26,379 bases of DNA from a virus (taxonomy: Duplodnaviria; Heunggongvirae; Uroviricota; Caudoviricetes). Under the pieces are notes generated by a model that searched no databases, had not been told where the DNA came from, and saw only the letters and a program-made list of their open reading frames with translations. The position numbers and the translations under genes are program-made. Position 1 is the stretch's first letter; the number at the start of each line of letters is the position of its first letter. The stretch is from IMG/VR virus record IMGVR_UViG_2698536576_000002; one strand, 5' to 3'. This document shows positions 744 to 16,038 of this stretch, in pieces.

Positions 744-953
744 TTAATTTGAATACAATGCAATTCTCGAGGACTGAAGTTTCTCGCAATTAAAATTTAT
801 CAGTTTTACTTTCTGCTCTCTGGAAACGCCTGCTTCTTTTTTACCTGAGAGCATTTTTTCGCATTCTGATTTCGTTAGTTTAGATTTTGAATATCTTGTC
901 CAGTTAGTAGGAGTGCCACCTTCCTTTTCAATAGTGGCGGTAATTTTATACAT
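744..953 (-). CDS. ydaC: YdaC-like small protein, 69 aa
   Basis: ORF 744..1049; start chosen at MYKITATIEKEGG, preceded by GGAGGTG 5 nt upstream. Confidence 0.65.
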   Translation of the reverse strand: MYKITATIEKEGGTPTNWTRYSKSKLTKSECEKMLSGKKEAGVSREQKVKLINFNCEKLQSSRIALYSN

Positions 954-2006: not shown

Positions 2007-4599
2007 TTGCATATTCCTTAGCCCAGCGGGGCAGTGATAATGTCTTAATAGCTGGCCATTCATCGGTATTCAGGCAGTCAGACAGGGTTCGCAGATTGCG
2101 GTGATATTCCTGTTGACCTGCCAGTTTTGCTTCTTCGCCCATCATGAAAATTTCAACCGGATAACGTCCGCATTCAATAGTTGTGCTGGCAACCAGAAAA
2201 ACGAAAGTTGGCTGCACTCCAAACTGTGCTTCATAACCGTCACTGTAGAATGCATCCTGAACGTGATAGCGGTAGTCGTAATAAGCGGTTTTGAATCGTT
2301 GAATATCCGCCGTAGTTTTCACGTCCATGATCCAGTGAAATTCAGGGATAATTTTGTCCGGACGGCACCGACACAAAATTCCTGTTTCAGGATCTTCCCA
2401 GTAAATTGATGATTCAGCGTGTCCGGCGCTTTCAACAAGCCATTGCCCCAGCGGCAAAGCCATAACGCTTTGATACATGAGTTCAATTTTCCGGCCTTCT
2501 TCCGCAGTGATAACCGTTTTTCCTGTGCTTGCGCATTCCATCAGAAACGCTTTCTCTTCTTCTTTTCCGGCGTTTGTACGGCGGTTAAATTCAGGTGCTA
2601 CGATAAAGCGGTTACTGAATTCTTCCGGTTCAAGTACCCGGCAGTGGAAAGCAGTTCCTAAATCGAGCGTTTTTGTCTTTGTGGTGTCCACGGGGGCATT
2701 TTTACGCCACAAATATAGTGCCGGAGTATCAGCAATGTCATCGAGCTGAGACTTACTGATACCGGGACCCGCGTGGTAATTCTCATTCGAAATTCCGTAA
2801 TAAATACCTGGCTCTATGTCTTCTACGATTACGGGATCTGCGACTTCGCCAGTTTCATCACTGCAATCGCGATGGGGATCGCTGCCAGCATTCTCATTGT
2901 GCGGATGTTCAGCGCCTTCCATTTCCTCCGGATCATTTTCCTTAGCTTCAACCTGACTCTCTTCATCGAATGTTTCCTGGTATGTTGCGTCGCCCATCAC
3001 CGCACCACAGTCAGGGCAGTTATCCCCGCCAGTCTGGCCGCAGGCATTGCAGGCTATTTCCGGTTCCTGTTGCACTACTGGCTCAGGTTGATTCATATCT
3101 GGGCTGGTTTTTTCCGTTTCTGGCTGGTTCTGGTACACACAATCGCGAGTCTGGATCCCCTTTACCCATTTCGGATCGTTCGGGTCGCTAATTCCGTCAA
3201 CAAATTCACCACGTGATGCAGCAAGCAATTTATCGGCATCGACAGGATTTTTTGATGGAATGTTTTTCCGGGCTTCATGGAGTTCTGCCCGCAGTTCCTG
3301 ATATTTCGCATCAACAGAATTTACCTGTGACTGAGCATCCAGCGGCTGCGTGTCCTGATGATGTTCAGTTGCGTCCGGTTCCATTGTTTCAGCCTCTCCC
3401 TGTTCAACTGCCGTTGTTCCAGATGGTTGCGGTTTTTCTTCATCATCCTGTTTTCCTTCTTCTGTTACTCGCTGCGGCATCGGGGCAGAGGAGCGACCGC
3501 AGGCAATATCCACGATTTCCGGATCAGGGTTGGCATGATCGGTTTCAGTCAGTACTTTGTTCAGATATTCAGTGACGTGCGCGGGGATGACCTCGATCCC
3601 AATTGGTGCTTCTTTTACGGACGCAACCACGATGGCGCGGGAATAATCCAGCCCGCCAGGCATGGTGATGAATTTGTCGCGGAAAACAGAAAAGGGCGGT
3701 TTATTTTCAGCGATAATTTCCTCAATGCGTTTAGCGTGTGCCGGATGAAGGTTATAGATGTCCAGATCCATTGAACGGGCCAGTACGCCAGTGGCTACGT
3801 CGCGCGCCAGTGACGTCAGATCGTGTACGAAACCTTCGCCGCGATCGGTGAGGTTTCCGCCGCCAGCATTAGCACCGGAAGCCGTGCGAGTGATGTGTGA
3901 AACACGATTACCCTTCATCCACTCTTTTGTCAGCAGTCCTCGATCGGTGTAGTCAGCGTTCAGGTATGCTTCGAAAAAAGCAGTTATCAGTCCCAGGTTT
4001 GAATTACCAGGATTAGGGAAAACTTTGTCAGTGTCACGAACCAGTTTGTGGAGTTCGCGAATTTCCAGCGGGTCGAGCAGGCTGGTTTTGTGGGAAACAG
4101 CCAGGGCAGTAACAGCCGGTAGTTCTTCAGCCCGAGCAATGTGTAATGCCTGGAGTCCGTCGCGTGAAACGTGCGTTACCGGTTTTTCGCTGCCGTGTTG
4201 AGCAAGCCAACGAATGGGCAGTTCCTGGCCAGAAATTGGGAGTAGCATATTCTCCTCAATCTCAGTCATGTCTTCGCCGTTGACGTTGGTATTGCCTTGA
4301 TAGTGAGCGTTGTCTGGTGCTGCTCCCGGTTTTAGTTCCCATGTCATGGAGTCTTTGCTGAGTTGATAGCGTTCACTCCAGGTAAAATCGATCTCACCTT
4401 CAGCGGGCAGGTCATTAACGACAGGAAAATTCGTGGCAACAGCTTTAAAATAGCTGCTCAGTTTTTTACCTGACTTAACGATCAGGTAGTCCAGAGTGGC
4501 ACAGGTCGATTCAAAATCGTTGCTTGCCCACAGGACGACGTCAGGTTCACCGGATGATTTTTTCGCTTTCCGTAACAGGAAGAGTGGTTTTGTGCTCAT
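1999..4599 (-). CDS. recE: RecE exonuclease VIII, 866 aa
   Basis: ORF 1999..4599, [30 protein letters not shown]...; full-length RecE-like. Confidence 0.9.
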
Positions 4600-5050: not shown

Positions 5051-5221
5051 TTAAAGTTCATGTGCCATCTGGTCTTTTTCGGCACAAGCTTCACTGCAAT
5101 ATTTTCTCGGTTCGTCTTTTGATAAAATCCCGTGCATGAAGTGAAGCATTCTTTCAATAGCTTTGCTTTCTTCAACGTCTTTTTTGCAAAGGTGGTAAGC
5201 ACATTTTATTTTCTTAGTCAT
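5051..5221 (-). CDS. ydaE: YdaE-like Cys-rich small protein, 56 aa (hand-translated; absent from ORF track)
   Basis: Minus strand reads [56 protein letters not shown]; its ATG overlaps the kilR stop as ATGA. Confidence 0.7.
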   Translation of the reverse strand: MTKKIKCAYHLCKKDVEESKAIERMLHFMHGILSKDEPRKYCSEACAEKDQMAHEL

Positions 5222-9770: not shown

Positions 9771-10496
9771 ATGGAGACCGTTTTTGACGCACTGAAAGCA
9801 ATGGGAAAAGCCTCTTCCCAGGAAGTGGCAGCACGTCTGGGAATGACCCGGGATGAGGCGATTAACGAGCTGTGGAAACTGAAGCGTCGTGGGGAAGCTG
9901 ATAACAAGGGCCCGATGTGGTGGTTGACTCAAACCGACGAAAACGCATCTGTAGCACAGGCTTCTAAAGTGACAGCGCAAATGCTGATCGAGGCGATTGA
10001 ACAGCATGGCCCTAAAGCGGCTGATGAACTTGCACTGATATTCAGAATTACTTCCCGCAGGGTGAACTCATCGCTGGCTATGGCCATCAGCAAAGGTCGT
10101 CTGATTCGCGTAAATCAGAACGGTAAATTTCGTTACTGCCTGCCGGACGGTAATTTACCAGCAGAGCCGAAAGTTGTATCGGTAGTGAAAACACCTGGTA
10201 AAGGCTTTCCTCAGCCAGCCGGTGTTGCGTTACCAGTACAGGAAGCGGCAACACAGGAAGAAATTAAAACAGATACTGTGGGGGACATTGTGCAGTCACT
10301 ACCATCGTTCACTGAAACGCGAGCCAATGACCTGATTATACCATCGCTGCAAATGGCAAACCGCGAACTGCGCCGGGCGAAAAGTTATGTCCAGAAGTGG
10401 GAGCGAGTCTGCGCCGCGCTGCGTGAGCTGAACAAGCACCAGGATATTGTCCGTCAGATTGTCGATTCCTCCAGTCGTATTGTGTCGGAAAAGTGA
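9771..10496 (+). CDS. Hypothetical prophage protein with two winged-helix-like modules (YdaW-like by position), 241 aa
   Basis: ORF 9720..10496; start METVFDALKAM with GGGAGG upstream. Confidence 0.5.
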   Translation: METVFDALKAMGKASSQEVAARLGMTRDEAINELWKLKRRGEADNKGPMWWLTQTDENASVAQASKVTAQMLIEAIEQHGPKAADELALIFRITSRRVNSSLAMAISKGRLIRVNQNGKFRYCLPDGNLPAEPKVVSVVKTPGKGFPQPAGVALPVQEAATQEEIKTDTVGDIVQSLPSFTETRANDLIIPSLQMANRELRRAKSYVQKWERVCAALRELNKHQDIVRQIVDSSSRIVSEK

Positions 10497-10512: not shown

Positions 10513-10935
10513 ATGGCAAAAGTATTAACACAGGAAGAGCGAGAAAAAATTAAAGGGCAGATTGTTGATCTCGTACGCCAGAGTGGGCGCGAGACGTTAA
10601 GGCAACTGGAGGCCAAGACAGGGGCGACAAGATATCTGATGAGCATTCTTGCCAGAGAGTTGGTTGCCAGTGGCGATGTATACAACTCTGGCTATGGGTT
10701 ATTTACCTCTGAACAGGCTCGTAAGGACTGGAATAACGCCCGCAAAAAACTATCCAGGGCAAAGGTGAAAAAAACGGTTGTGGTTGATCCTGACCTTATC
10801 TGGTCATTACCAGACGGAGAAATACGCCGATATGACGGGCGTCTGAATATAATCTGTAGCGAGTGCCGTAAGAGCGAAGTTATGAAGCGTGTACTGATGT
10901 TTTATCGAGGAAGTATCCAGGAATTTATTCGGTAA
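10513..10935 (+). CDS. Hypothetical protein, 140 aa, N-terminal winged-helix-like module
   Basis: ORF 10447..10935; start MAKVLTQEEREKIKG with GGGAGGG upstream. Confidence 0.5.
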   Translation: MAKVLTQEEREKIKGQIVDLVRQSGRETLRQLEAKTGATRYLMSILARELVASGDVYNSGYGLFTSEQARKDWNNARKKLSRAKVKKTVVVDPDLIWSLPDGEIRRYDGRLNIICSECRKSEVMKRVLMFYRGSIQEFIR

Positions 10936-11071
10936 GCAAAATCAAAATGTAATCGCTCAAGTTTAAGTTGGTGTATCTACGGCGCAGAGCCATCGCCTCA
11001 TCTGGCACTGCGCTAAAATCAAATTTAGTTCCACTCTTTATTTTGTATCTGCTAAAACGCTACATAAGATT

Positions 11072-11344
11072 TTACTTTTTTAAAGAATAAGGGAATATGT
11101 GCACCATATTGGAGGCTAGTGGATATATTCCTATGCTACGAGTTGTCTTTTTTAGTTGATCTATGCTTGCTTCTTTATCGGGAGCCCGGCCTCCCCACAC
11201 TGTAACTCCCTCAGGTATATCGATTGGGCGACTTTTGTTTTCATCTGTGATTTCAATCGTTTCCCCATTATTAAGCGTAATAATCAACGATGACACGTCC
11301 AGGTGTTGTGTATTCCCATTTTTATTTTTAATATCTATTTTCAT
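11072..11344 (-). CDS. Hypothetical protein, 90 aa, in AT-rich island
   Basis: ORF track only; no convincing Shine-Dalgarno; protein-like composition. Confidence 0.3.
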   Translation of the reverse strand: MKIDIKNKNGNTQHLDVSSLIITLNNGETIEITDENKSRPIDIPEGVTVWGGRAPDKEASIDQLKKTTRSIGIYPLASNMVHIFPYSLKK

Positions 11345-11614
11345 GGCTATTTCATTATATGTTATCTGTGCTGGAGTAATAAGTTTACGGTATTAAGAAG
11401 CATTTTGACGAAACAATCAACTGACTTATCAGCTAAGGTGGCATTGTAATGCGATCTGATTGGTATCATCAGGACGCTGTTCAAAAAAGGGGGATTAGTT
11501 GATCTTGAAATCTTGCTCAAAATGTGTAGCCTCTCGTTTAACTGCCAACTTTTTGGGGCAGTACACTCTGATGCTACACAACTTGCAAGTTTCATTACCC
11601 CGACGTAAACATTT

Positions 11615-12283
11615 ATGACAGTTGCTGATTTCAAACGTCCTAAGTTGGAGCTCCCAAACGGGGCAAACAAACTACTATTACACTCTTGTTGTGCACCATG
11701 TTCCGGTGAAGTGATGGAGGCTCTTCAGGCCTCAGGAATCGACTACACCATCTTCTTCTATAATCCGAACATTCATCCTCAGAAAGAGTATTTGATTCGT
11801 AAGAATGAGAATATTCGATATGCTGAACAACATGGTGTACCGTTTATCGATGCTGATTACGACACTGACAACTGGTTTGAGCGAGCCAAAGGAATGGAAT
11901 GGGAGCCCGAACGTGGGAGGCGTTGTACTATGTGTTTTGACATGCGTTTTGAACGGACGGCGCTGTACGCCGCTGAAAATGGTTTCAGTGTGATCAGCAG
12001 TTCACTGGGCATTTCTCGCTGGAAAAATATGCAGCAGGTTAACGACAGCGGACGGCGAGCTGTCGCACATTATCCGGGCATGGTGTACTGGGATTATAAC
12101 TGGCGCAAGCAGGGAGGCTCGTCCCGCATGATTGAAATCAGCAAACGCGAACAATTCTATCAGCAGGAATATTGTGGTTGCGTGTATTCACTTCGCGATA
12201 CCAATTTACACCGCAAATCCCAGGGACGCCCTCTTATCAAAATTGGTCAACTCCACTACGGTAAAGAAGAAGGGCAGGAATGA
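11615..12283 (+). CDS. QueH-like epoxyqueuosine reductase (DUF208 family), 222 aa
   Basis: [11 protein letters not shown] near the N-terminus, [18 protein letters not shown] and YCGC Cys motifs, which I recognise as QueH family features; no search run. Confidence 0.5.
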
Positions 12284-12592
12284 TTTTTACATTACGTCAA
12301 CAGAGTGTCACAACGTTTCTATATATGGTATGCCGACCGTAATTTTCGAATCATCATGACTAATAGGCAGGTCACCTATGCCAGCAATGACCTGCTCATC
12401 TTGAAATTAGCAGAAATCTTGTAGCTATGATGTAGCTCAAAATAGTTTTTCATTCTTTTACCTGATGTCTGTTCCTGGCTGAAAACAGACTGTATTATTT
12501 AATTACGCACCACTGACACTTGTTTATTGAAGTAGTGAGTACAAAGCCACATATTTATCAGTGTATGTATACGTCAAAAACAGGAGATTGTT

Positions 12593-12682
12593 GTGCTGGT
12601 TCTGAAGTGTGCGTTAGCAATAGTGGCTGTGGTGGCAATTTATTGCCTTGTTGTTGTTCTTATGGAGCGACTTTCTGATTGA
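12593..12682 (+). CDS. Small hydrophobic ORF, 29 codons, GTG start (V/M-LVLKCALAIVAVVAIYCLVVVLMERLSD)
   Basis: AGGAG 6 nt upstream of GTG; single predicted transmembrane helix; hand-translated. Confidence 0.35.
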   Translation: MLVLKCALAIVAVVAIYCLVVVLMERLSD

Positions 12683-12816
12683 TTACATACTGGCTAAAAA
12701 AAGCGTTTGCCTGGTTTATCTTTGTCCGGCAAGGTGCGCTCATTAATCTGAAGTAAATTTATTTCTTAAGTATTCAGATTACTTCTTATGGTCGAAGTCT
12801 CCTGGCAATGTAGAAC

Positions 12817-12864
12817 CAAAATATTTACAAAAAGGAGACCCGTCGGGGATAGCCCTGCCGGGTC
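12817..12864 (-). terminator. Intrinsic terminator downstream of the YeaR-like gene
   Basis: GC-rich stem GACCCG...CGGGTC followed on the minus strand by TCCTTTTTGTAAATATTTT. Confidence 0.5.
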
Positions 12865-12894
12865 TGACTGTTAAAGCATTTTTAATATGATCAT

Positions 12895-13239
12895 CTATTT
12901 TTTGGTGCTATAGACTTTTTCGCCTGAGAAGTCTGGAGCGACCCAAAAGTTAATATTAAACTGAGCATCATCGCTTAGTTCAACACGGTGCCAGTATTGT
13001 GGTGGGCTTGTTGCAAAAGAGCCAGCATTAATAACTACTTTTATCTCTGGTTCAGTAGTATTCTCATCAGCAAAACCATAATATGTTACAGTGCCTTCCA
13101 TTACGCACAACTGCCCAAAAACACCTGCTGCTGTATTATGATGTGTTAATAATGCTGAAGGTACGTTCTCTTTTGTGAAGAACGGAGTTGAGCGTTTGAT
13201 TACCCAATCTTTAGGAATTCTCTTGTGTGTCATAACCAC
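12895..13239 (-). CDS. DUF1971-family protein (YeaR-like), 114 aa
   Basis: RSTPFF...VMEGTVTYYGFADE...EPE...AGSFATSPPQYWHRVE...FNINFWVAP pattern resembling E. coli YeaR as I remember it; AGGAGGTG RBS. Confidence 0.55.
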   Translation of the reverse strand: MVMTHKRIPKDWVIKRSTPFFTKENVPSALLTHHNTAAGVFGQLCVMEGTVTYYGFADENTTEPEIKVVINAGSFATSPPQYWHRVELSDDAQFNINFWVAPDFSGEKVYSTKK

Positions 13240-14103
13240 CTCCTATAAAACATGCATTATGAATGCTCCTTTTGAGGAGTTATGTCAAGCTGTTATGAAA
13301 CACATAATTGATATGTTGATTAGAGGAGTAGATAGAATAAATATGGTTGTTTTTGGTGTAACTACTTGTTTTTCTTTTGGTTTATGCATTCTGTGTGTTA
13401 GGAATAAGTTATTAAAGTTTAATCAAGAAATCTCGATGCATTCCACATAGATTACTGTTACTGAACCTTATTGTGTGCATTAGTTGTGTTCTGAAATTTC
13501 AGCTTAATTATTTATGATATATTTTTTAACGATAAATGTTTTCCCAGGTGAAAGACAGTTGGGAATAAGATAAGTAATATATCATTAATCCTGATTATTC
13601 CCAGGTACCTTTACTGTGCATATAAATAAATCATATATGCATCAAATAGTGTAAAGGCATCCTTTTAGATATGTCTTATCAAATGTTAATGACTTGAGTG
13701 GGAAACATGATTCCAGCAACTTATCATGTGGCTACTTTATAAAAATAATGCCCATATAAAACAACAAGCGAAAAGGATTACGGATAAAAAAGGAGCGAGA
13801 TGTGCAAACTTGTTATTTTCCATGTTTAACCACCTTAAATAATTGATGATGACGGGATGATTGCATCTGTAATGCTTTTATTGAAATGTTATGATAAAAA
13901 AGAACTTTTTCATAACATTAAAATGTAATTTAGCTAATCGTTTTTAATAATAAGTGTCGTATTTCTATCCTTGTACCAGCTATTTGATATGTAGTGTTTG
14001 TTCATGCTATGTGGGGCTTTACACCATAGCCAGTTTATTTATACTTTATTCGTCAGCCTGAACAACTGGCATCTGCTGCACTGCGCCATAGAGAGATTGA
14101 GAA

Positions 14104-15884: not shown

Positions 15885-15960
<76 letters not shown>

Positions 15961-15963
15961 TAT

Positions 15964-16038
<75 letters not shown>

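Follow-up and report, generated by a model that had tools for sequence, protein, structure and literature searches.

Why should a prophage of E. coli carry a gene for QueH, when the host already has QueG to carry out the final reaction of queuosine synthesis? The question is raised by a block inside a defective Rac-type prophage, within a stretch of viral DNA of 26,379 nucleotides (hereafter the window). Four ORFs had been placed in this block by the first-pass annotation, and all were recovered at the same coordinates and on the same strands, in the order 90-aa ORF (-), QueH (+), 29-codon ORF (+) and DUF1971/YeaR-like gene (-) (Table 1). The block lies between the replication and nin/Q modules, as had been proposed: it is preceded by a replication initiator, a DnaC-like loader, DUF1627 and a Ren-like DUF977 gene, and followed by a NinB-like DUF1367 gene, an HNH protein and a Q-like antiterminator. 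The prophage is defective; the annotation of an identical prophage contains no head or tail genes.

Table 1. Features of the cargo block and its borders (coordinates of the window)
Feature	Coordinates	Strand	Basis or remarks
DUF977 / Ren-like gene	10513..10935	+	Pfam DUF977 E=8e-28; PHROG 142 Ren-like exclusion protein E=6e-43
Cargo block	10936-14103	mixed	low-GC interval inside defective Rac-type E. coli prophage
90-aa orphan gene	11072..11344	-	divergent from QueH
QueH cassette (leader + ORF)	11566..12287	+	blastn junctions, upstream alignment
QueH, predicted cobalamin-independent epoxyqueuosine reductase, 222 aa	11615..12283	+	PF02677, Cys constellation, AF2/Foldseek
29-codon gene, small hydrophobic single-TM-like protein (MLVLKCALAIVAVVAIYCLVVVLMERLSD)	12593..12682	+	GTG start; AGGAG Shine-Dalgarno 12582-12586
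Probable intrinsic terminator of DUF1971 gene	12836..12865	-	GC-rich hairpin then T-run, read from sequence
DUF1971 / YeaR-like gene	12895..13233 (ORF 12895-13239)	-	probable ATG 13233 (PGAP start), AGGAGG Shine-Dalgarno
Putative DUF1971 promoter	13249..13288	-	perfect TTGACA -35 at 13288-13283; CATAAT hexamer
AT-rich spacer	13289..13735		GC about 0.30, most AT-rich; short inverted repeats
Phage backbone upstream of NinB-like gene	13736..14103	+	76-88% identity to prophages without QueH/DUF1971, e.g. L006

Family membership, cysteine ligands and predicted fold of the prophage QueH

The 222-aa protein, initially described as QueH-like, is a bona fide member of the QueH family. It matched the Pfam QueH model PF02677 (DUF208) with E=1.2e-65 and 221 bits (cut-off 23.5) over model positions 1-174 of 175, and a phmmer search against the PDB retrieved T. 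maritima QueH (7lc5) at E=3e-22. No NCBIfam model matched, though PGAP assigns the QueH name. The primary papers on QueH are those of Zallot (2017) and Li (2021).

All seven family cysteines (C25, C26, C29, C104, C107, C187 and C189) are kept, which gives the metal-ligand pattern CCxxC ... CxxC ... CxC of the family, in the constellation C25 C26 A P C29 ... R C104 xx C107 ... C187 G C189. Among 80 diverse family representatives most of these columns are at least 94% Cys, with C189 at about 90% and C187 at about 82%. The T. maritima enzyme carries Asp13 in the C29 column, and is an exception to the family consensus CCAPC; a loss of ligand at Cys29 was rejected, Cys being the consensus residue. 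All seven cysteines are also present in each of the 80 QueH copies from IMG/VR, which are all intact.

The AF2 model of the protein (pLDDT 82.8, pTM 0.83) is predicted to adopt the QueH fold, of the adenine-nucleotide alpha-hydrolase-like type. The top Foldseek matches of this model were all T. maritima QueH, with a target-normalised TM of 0.87 and an rmsd of 2.2 A to 7lc5, and the next best were TtuA/LarE-type PP-loop proteins with TM below 0.6. The prophage protein thus resembles T. maritima QueH (PDB 7LC5/7LC7/9DEU) in its predicted fold and Cys constellation, at about 31% identity. It is far closer to chromosomal QueH of Erwinia, Providencia, Proteus and Photorhabdus (75-90% identity among the matches listed). 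Unlike these enzymes, however, the predicted QueH is carried by a lambdoid prophage, and the chromosome of its host species already has QueG.

Distribution, selection and origin

The view that E. coli uses QueG was borne out, as queG was found in 5426/5426 complete E. coli genomes; the phage QueH is therefore a non-orthologous duplicate. The same genomes contradict the suggestion that a phage-borne QueH would be unusual. QueH is present in 995 of the 5426 (18%) but not in K-12; the carriers include ST131, some O157:H7 and the laboratory strains B (REL606), C and ATCC 8739. It also occurs in at least 188 viral contigs of IMG/VR and, at 96.8% aa identity, in the deposited 45-kb complete genome of Escherichia phage HannyBb (PP925841), where it is annotated as 'hypothetical protein'. 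RefSeq already names the prophage protein QueH. A literature search found no paper describing a prophage QueH, and a viral survey reported no QueA, QueG or QueH in viruses (Hutinet et al. 2019; PMC6884629). The gene is common and labelled in RefSeq, yet seemingly unstudied: the enzyme is real and ordinary, and its setting has received little attention in print.

The place of QueH in the phage genome is well conserved on one side only. The DUF977/Ren-like gene, which closes the replication-side module, borders QueH on the left in nearly every prophage examined. In 75 of 80 IMG/VR loci it lies upstream and is co-oriented with QueH (in the other five it was not detected by tblastn), and the gap is 181 bp in 40 of these 75. 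In this window the distance is 680 bp and the divergent 90-aa gene lies between. On the right, the neighbours vary among Hok, RM, DUF968 and NinB. QueH is missing from otherwise related prophages, of which L005 and L006 have flanks in common with this one.

Comparison of QueH with other phage alleles gave a dN/dS of 0.03-0.04 at a dS of about 0.47, which indicates strong purifying selection. In Erwinia and Providencia, chromosomal orthologues of 82-85% identity have a core neighbourhood, with the order purL-QueH-glrK in the former and tmcA beside QueH in the latter. The only stretch common to this prophage and the usual ST131/O157-type prophages is the QueH cassette itself, whose leader retains 49 bp upstream of the ATG with an invariant TCTGATGCTACAC block, as seen in the upstream alignment of alleles. 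Capture of QueH together with its native promoter was rejected, the upstream region being unlike those of Erwinia and Providencia. Neither a consensus sigma-70 promoter nor a Shine-Dalgarno sequence was recognisable on the + strand upstream of QueH; the conserved TCTGATGCTACAC block could be an extended -10-like element. A hairpin without a T-run lies downstream of the gene, at 12367-12395.

A mosaic block at a cargo hotspot

The first-pass annotation had described the whole interval as AT-rich cargo, a description which applies in part. GC is 0.385 in the block, against 0.456 in the whole window and 0.46-0.49 in the flanking genes, and the 500-nt minimum of the window (0.292) is found at 13501-14000. 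QueH itself is not AT-rich (GC 0.472, GC3 0.48); the low value stems from the 90-aa ORF, the DUF1971 gene and intergenic DNA. Likewise, the last ~370 bp (13736-14103) belong to the backbone and not to the cargo, since they are common to prophages that lack QueH. In the spacer just before them no RNA family matched and no record annotates any feature.

Separate acquisition, proposed on composition and orientation, is upheld by the distribution of the modules, which occur in 43, 995, about 350-460 and about 1000 genomes. Because these distributions differ, the block is best described as a mosaic whose modules are distributed independently of each other, at a site already known as a hotspot for cargo. 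The same slot between Ren-like and NinB-like genes holds, in other prophages, an NgoMIV-type RM system, Hok toxins, a TetR/amidohydrolase/NTP-pyrophosphatase/SIR2 cluster, or DUF262 with an AAA ATPase. QueH thus shares the hotspot of lambdoid morons known at the replication/nin junction (hok/sok, relBE-hokD of Qin, RM), and resembles them in its variable presence and its neighbours of atypical composition. It differs in kind: they serve as toxin, exclusion or restriction genes, and QueH is a tRNA-modification enzyme of housekeeping type. A transposon-like cassette marked by flanking direct or inverted repeats was rejected, just short chance-level matches being found. Rfam, applied to the window at gathering threshold and to the block at E<=1, gave no match within the block, nor did PADLOC defence models for any of the five small proteins. 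Elsewhere in the window, Rfam detected RalA and two tRNAs.

The 90-aa ORF has no match in Pfam, NCBIfam, PHROG or PADLOC and its AF2 model (pLDDT 48) is unusable. It belongs to a small family restricted to Enterobacteriaceae, with 61-100% identity and conserved length, and is present in only 43 E. coli genomes. A role as functional partner of QueH was rejected, as homologues lie in unrelated chromosomal contexts without QueH.

The frame of the 29-codon ORF is kept in four diverged alleles, with mostly synonymous changes; in the closest pair 8 of 11 substitutions are synonymous and the rest conservative. It is thus a small hydrophobic ORF under coding constraint, a trait that a type I toxin (Hok/Ldr/Ibs-like) would also show. 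In other prophages it lies upstream of hok. As to a cognate antisense RNA or a described toxin family, no match was obtained in Rfam even at E<=1, nor in Pfam, NCBIfam, PHROG or PADLOC; an exact-sequence look-up of the peptide showed that some GenBank records label it 'putative membrane protein'.

The gene earlier called YeaR-like deserves this name: its 114-aa product matched DUF1971 (PF09313) at E=2.7e-26, YeaR (PDB 3bb6) at E=3e-25 and 3dl3 at E=3e-59. It is present in 457 E. coli genomes. Some copies are labelled in RefSeq as TehB, a SAM-dependent methyltransferase, which was rejected: NCBIfam TehB NF008992 scored 48 bits against a cut-off of 303 and aligned at model positions 11-106 of 289 only, covering the N-terminal TehB domain, and the 'TehB family' label overstates the gene since the methyltransferase domain is absent. 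Like YeaR of the NsrR/NarL-regulated yeaR-yoaG operon of E. coli K-12 and the 'TehB' of PDB 3DL3, the block protein (112-114 aa) is a stand-alone DUF1971 protein; unlike YeaR, it is prophage-borne and lacks a yoaG partner.

The putative promoter region of this gene carries, as for NsrR-regulated YeaR, an NsrR-operator-like palindrome (11-1-11, 13271-13249), which overlaps the CATAAT hexamer. A PWM derived from 19 published NsrR sites (PMC5320621, Table 4) gave the putative site 17.2 bits, 6 bits more than any other site in the window and above 95% of shuffles; the homologous site in L005 scored 19.7 bits. The gene may respond to nitric oxide. The hairpin with its T-run at the 3′ side, probably an intrinsic terminator, is identical in two aligned alleles; a consensus scan did not report it.

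What the prophage QueH may do

QueG depends on cobalamin (B12) and on 2x[4Fe-4S], and E. coli cannot synthesise B12. For this reason a phage QueH would let the host finish queuosine (Q) without cobalamin. The two enzymes share the same predicted reaction, epoxyqueuosine (oQ34) to Q34 in tRNA, and differ in fold and cofactor, B12 being needed by QueG and not by QueH. QueH has been described as a non-orthologous replacement of QueG, and E. coli K-12 has a complete queuosine pathway (PMC5372724), in which tgt and queA would supply the substrate. When K-12 is grown in B12-free M9, oQ builds up instead of Q (PMC7026641, which also credits this observation to Frey et al. 1988).

Most plausibly, then, the phage QueH is a B12-independent back-up for the conversion of oQ to Q. 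We propose that it is a catalytically competent, cobalamin-independent Fe-S enzyme that would reduce the oQ34 of tRNA-Asn, -Asp, -His and -Tyr. Its gene would have been taken from an enterobacterial chromosome and then kept by lambdoid prophages of E. coli as a moron, an accessory gene in a fixed slot just 3′ of the Ren-like gene. Where cobalamin is not available it would allow the host to complete Q, whether as a lysogen or while the phage develops. Its three neighbours (90-aa orphan, 29-aa membrane peptide and DUF1971 gene) would be unrelated, independently acquired passengers of one cargo hotspot. To this reading as a whole (competent enzyme, enterobacterial origin, retention as a moron, B12 bypass and unrelated neighbours) we give a probability of about 0.62. 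We know of no established phenotypic difference between oQ-tRNA and Q-tRNA, and the selective benefit is for this reason conjectural. The early rightward operon is repressed in the lysogen, and since QueH lies on the same strand, its expression there, and hence lysogenic conversion, is uncertain.

This orientation could instead mean that the gene serves lytic growth, staying silent in the lysogen, with no part in lysogenic conversion, and, through delayed-early rightward transcription after induction or infection, turning host oQ-tRNA into Q-tRNA to aid phage translation. QueH is indeed co-stranded with the replication and Ren-like genes and directly downstream of them, often at a spacing of 181 bp; no consensus promoter of its own was detected and the common cassette retains just the 49-bp leader. 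Yet the gene here is separated from DUF977 by a divergent gene and 680 bp, it is intact although the prophage is defective, the tRNAs of this phage (Thr-UGU, Gly-UCC) are not Q substrates and the TCTGATGCTACAC block could be an extended -10-like element. We regard a lytic purpose as rather unlikely. Still less probable, in our estimation, is that QueH, far from being a passive back-up, is brought into play through the early operon once the phage is induced or infects a cell, switching host GUN-anticodon tRNAs from oQ to Q and so re-tuning NAU/NAC decoding for phage genes or altering susceptibility to anticodon nucleases. If true, it would be the first known phage gene to edit host tRNA wobble hypermodification as an infection strategy, and Q status and the B12 dependence of translation would vary between E. 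coli lineages, with B, C and ST131 on one side and K-12 on the other.

A role in conflict, as defence or counter-defence, or a substrate other than tRNA, such as 7-deazaguanine in DNA, or escape from, or attraction of, anticodon nucleases through altered tRNA, was also weighed. Defence genes (RM, SIR2, DUF262/AAA) often occupy neighbouring hotspot slots, as does Hok, which leaves room for such a role, and enzymes of the preQ0 pathway serve phage DNA modification (PMC6884629). Phage 7-deazaguanine clusters (DpdA with FolE/QueD/QueE/QueC; phages 9g and CAjan) are, like QueH, phage-borne queuosine-pathway genes. These clusters put preQ0-type bases into phage DNA, whereas here only the tRNA-specific last step is found, without a transglycosylase: neither the 43 features annotated in the identical prophage nor the window ORFs examined include a DpdA/TGT-like transglycosylase or a gene for preQ0 synthesis (QueC, QueD, QueE or FolE). 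PADLOC gave no match, an identity of 82-85% with the chromosomal housekeeping QueH suggests that the substrate has stayed the same, and the variable right-hand neighbours leave no conserved partner beyond the upstream Ren-like gene. We hold this to be very unlikely. Marginally less credible again is that QueH hitch-hikes neutrally, without a function under selection in E. coli. Full redundancy with the universally present queG and the presence of QueH in only 18% of genomes would fit it; the low dN/dS between phage-borne alleles and the 80/80 intact copies do not. Nor do the recombination junctions, which hug the QueH ORF, as expected if the gene itself is the retained unit.

If the B12-independent back-up is active, the last step of queuosine synthesis would be B12-independent in about one fifth of E. 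coli strains, including pandemic ST131. Modification of tRNA in B12-free media would then depend on the strain, for a cause which pathway descriptions stating that E. coli uses QueG omit. The auxiliary genes of phages would then also include a tRNA-specific gene for queuosine, a kind of which the 2019 viral survey reported none.

QueH of the prophage and its conservation

The 222-aa protein, which the first-pass annotation had called QueH-like, matches the Pfam QueH family over the whole model (E=1.2e-65) and also the crystallised T. maritima QueH (E=3e-22). An exhaustive HMMER scan gave a family set of 4733 proteins at E<=0.001, of which 80 diverse representatives were aligned. In this alignment, the phage protein keeps all seven conserved cysteines (C25, C26, C29, C104, C107, C187 and C189). 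The column of C29 is occupied by Asp13 in the T. maritima enzyme and by Cys in 68 of 72 family members, so that the phage protein follows the consensus at this position. An AlphaFold2 model (pLDDT 82.8) superimposed on PDB 7LC5 with a target-normalised TM of 0.87 and an rmsd of 2.2 Å, while the next-best folds, PP-loop sulfurtransferases, scored far lower.

The window's allele differs from the ST131/O157 and HannyBb alleles by 47–48 synonymous and 7–10 non-synonymous substitutions; between phage alleles dS is about 0.47 and dN/dS 0.03–0.04. All 80 IMG/VR copies examined were intact, with the seven cysteines kept. We read this combination as the signature of selective maintenance during phage residence. 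The gene is genuine and looks functional and, judged from sequence and model, its family membership and competence seem close to certain.

PHROGs holds the QueH family as phrog_3217, under the label "unknown function"; the profile begins at Met34 of QueH and therefore excludes the CCAPC motif at the N-terminus. In many phage records the gene is probably called from an internal ATG or goes unnamed, as in the genome deposited for Escherichia phage HannyBb, where a 96.8% identical copy is annotated only as "hypothetical protein".

Distribution and origin of prophage queH

A phage-borne QueH had been thought unusual. It is instead common, since QueH DNA was found in 995 of 5426 complete E. coli genomes (43 with the window's allele and 952 with an allele 90–95% identical) and RefSeq already names prophage queH in about a thousand genomes, "epoxyqueuosine reductase QueH" being the name on all E. 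coli copies among the matches listed. Close relatives are also present in at least 188 viral contigs of IMG/VR. Carriers include O25b:H4-ST131 and O157:H7, and prophage copies are intact in E. coli B REL606 (in a Qin-like prophage), E. coli B ATCC 11303, E. coli C and ATCC 8739. Strain AMSCJX02 has one copy in each of two prophages. K-12 MG1655 is absent among the QueH matches listed, and a record labelled DH5alpha (L006) has other cargo at the QueH slot. That QueG is E. coli's own enzyme was borne out by queG in 5426 of 5426 genomes; in every case, QueH is therefore an additional and non-orthologous enzyme for the oQ to Q step.

Outside Escherichia, the nearest homologues (75–90% identical) bear the name QueH and are those of Erwinia, Providencia, Proteus, Photorhabdus, Gibbsiella, Rahnella and Serratia symbiotica. 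The Providencia gene lies in a core neighbourhood adjoining tmcA and the Erwinia gene between purL and glrK; these are housekeeping chromosomal genes. Most simply, phage queH would be a capture from such an enterobacterial chromosome. The DNA that precedes the phage cassette shows no relation to the regions upstream of the Erwinia and Providencia genes.

The prophage slot and its other genes

The window consists of a lambdoid prophage of the Rac type whose integration site adjoins ttcA. E. coli 13TMH22 carries an identical copy of the block, left of which PGAP annotates intR, xisR, ralR, recT, recE, kilR, sieB, a repressor/Cro pair, ydaT, a replication initiator, a DnaC-like ATPase, DUF1627 and DUF977, and right of which it annotates DUF1367, DUF1364, DUF1133, two tRNAs, lysis genes, trkG and tail-gene remnants. 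Genes for head or tail morphogenesis are absent from the PGAP annotation of this prophage copy, which makes the prophage defective. PHROG profiles identify a replication initiation protein, a DnaC-like loader and a Ren-like exclusion protein upstream, and NinB/Orf-like, HNH and Q-like antiterminator proteins downstream. Together, these labels confirm the placement of the block between the replication and nin/Q modules. Neither of the prophage tRNAs is a queuosine substrate.

Coordinates of features in the window, and in other records where named
Feature	Position	Strand	Remarks
RalA antitoxin sRNA (of RalR)	769-947		Rfam
Block	10936-14103		
Homology to common prophages	11566-12287		
QueH	11615-12283	+	
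Segment with 29-aa ORF	12545-12894		
29-aa hydrophobic ORF	12593-12682	+	also in prophage loci L004 (about 9960-10050), L005 (about 5070-5160), L006 (about 3450-3540)
DUF1971 gene	12895-13233	-	
NsrR-operator-like palindrome and TTGACA element	13249-13288	-	upstream region of DUF1971
Most AT-rich stretch	13450-13735		GC about 0.30; imperfect inverted repeats
TTCCCAGGT	near 13541 and 13598		two copies, among these inverted repeats
500-nt GC minimum of window	13501-14000		GC 0.292
Right-hand segment of block	13736-14103		
tRNA-Thr(UGU), tRNA-Gly(UCC)	15885-16038		downstream of Q-like gene; Rfam
Slot cargo, prophage locus L003	9851-11861		Ren-like to NinB-like or DUF968
Slot cargo, prophage locus L005	1517-4590		Ren-like to NinB-like or DUF968
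Slot cargo, prophage locus L006	1-3107		Ren-like to NinB-like or DUF968
QueH of REL606 (L097)	NC_012967.1 1620376-1621041		

All four ORFs of the block were recovered with the sizes and strands first assigned to them. The description of a low-GC block holds for the region as a whole (0.385, against 0.456 for the window; flanking DUF977 0.46 and DUF1367 0.49) but not for QueH itself, whose GC of 0.472 (GC3 0.48) is slightly higher than the window mean. The dip is due to the 90-aa ORF (0.377), DUF1971 (0.40) and intergenic DNA (0.31–0.39). The most AT-rich stretch has no ORF annotated in any record and no Rfam match.

A DUF977/Ren-like gene lies upstream of QueH on the same strand in 75 of 80 IMG/VR loci (tblastn gave no DUF977 match in the remaining five) and in ST131, O157:H7, REL606 and HannyBb, while the right neighbours of QueH are hokD, an NgoMIV-type RM system, DUF968 or a NinB-like gene. 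The window's order, 90-aa ORF, QueH, 29-aa ORF and DUF1971, is a minority form (3/80 IMG/VR loci). By pairwise blastn, homology of the block to common prophages is limited to the QueH ORF and its 49 bp leader. The remaining segments have their own distributions: 43 genomes for the 90-aa ORF, about 350 for the segment with the 29-aa ORF, 457 for DUF1971 and about 1000 for the right-hand segment, among them some prophages lacking both QueH and DUF1971. In the USMARC-49610 Rac-like prophage, the 29-aa ORF, DUF1971 and the AT-rich spacer are present and a TetR/amidohydrolase/NTP-pyrophosphatase/SIR2 cluster replaces QueH; in another prophage, DUF262, an AAA ATPase and hok take its slot. Examples of slot cargo in other prophages are an NgoMIV-type RM pair, the TetR-to-SIR2 cluster, and DUF262 plus AAA ATPase with a third gene. 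The slot between the Ren-like and NinB-like/DUF968 genes looks like a defence/cargo hotspot. Separate acquisition, as originally suggested, is thus upheld for independent modules, though not for one single island: given the separate distributions and the other cargo at the slot, the block is a recombinational cargo hotspot. No flanking repeats were found around it. In three genomes (e.g. NZ_CP116970.1), an IS3-family element is inserted in the block and splits the match into two pieces.

The DUF1971 protein shares about 83% identity with PDB 3DL3 (E=3e-59), and its relation to YeaR (PDB 3BB6) is clear. Some RefSeq copies are named "TehB family protein", an unjustified label, because the protein has the N-terminal domain of roughly 100 aa alone (48 bits against a 303-bit cut-off) and lacks the methyltransferase domain. 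With an NsrR matrix built from published sites (PMC5320621), the top score in the window (17.2 bits; kept in a second allele, at 19.7 bits) fell on AAGGAGCATTCATAATGCATGTT, a 23-bp NsrR-operator-like 11-1-11 palindrome directly upstream of the gene. The palindrome and a CATAAT hexamer overlap, and a perfect TTGACA stands 21 nt farther upstream. NsrR is known to target yeaR in K-12, so a similar nitric-oxide-responsive expression of the DUF1971 gene would be a reasonable guess.

The 90-aa ORF belongs to a small family of conserved length, restricted to Enterobacteriaceae, whose members occupy unrelated chromosomal settings. For the 29-codon ORF, the frame is kept in four diverged alleles, a Shine-Dalgarno sequence is present and, of the 11 substitutions in the closest allele pair, 8 are synonymous and the remainder Val to Ala or Met; it is a real gene with clear coding constraint. 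PGAP leaves it unannotated and some records call it "putative membrane protein". In HannyBb and one further prophage, hok follows it at a distance of a few hundred bp. The product resembles, and could be, either a type I toxin or a small membrane protein; no antisense RNA and no known family were found, Rfam included.

Proposed role of prophage QueH

QueG requires cobalamin to convert oQ to Q, and E. coli does not synthesise cobalamin. In B12-free M9, oQ rather than Q builds up in K-12 (PMC7026641, citing Frey et al. 1988). QueH, a non-orthologous replacement in bacteria without QueG (PMC5372724), uses iron and not cobalamin (PMC13443448; PMC9508795). The simplest reading, to which we give a probability of roughly 0.6, is that prophage queH would free the final Q step from B12, with a presumed physiological benefit.

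QueH runs in the same direction as the early rightward operon, and this operon is repressed in a lysogen. A purely lytic-phase role is a rival to the reading above. In the window, a divergent gene stands between QueH and that operon. Neither a consensus promoter nor a Shine-Dalgarno sequence is visible upstream of QueH; TCTGATGCTACAC, a 13-nt block 37–49 nt ahead of the ATG, is nevertheless invariant between alleles otherwise differing at nearly half of their synonymous sites. A conflict-related role, which the defence genes in the same hotspot suggest, and neutral hitch-hiking are further rivals; the latter is hard to reconcile with the low dN/dS. DNA modification is an unlikely role, since annotation of the identical copy includes no DpdA/TGT or preQ0-synthesis genes in the prophage.

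The QueH family, its chemistry and lambdoid cargo hotspots were all known before. A 2019 survey of viral queuosine-pathway genes reported no QueA, QueG or QueH homologues (PMC6884629), and our literature search found no paper on prophage- or phage-borne QueH. Prophage queH is thus a correctly annotated, unstudied auxiliary tRNA-modification gene; the finding is real, yet the enzyme is ordinary and the gene common. In practical terms, if QueH acts on oQ as proposed, the B12 dependence of queuosine may not be the same in K-12 as in E. coli B, C, ST131 and others.
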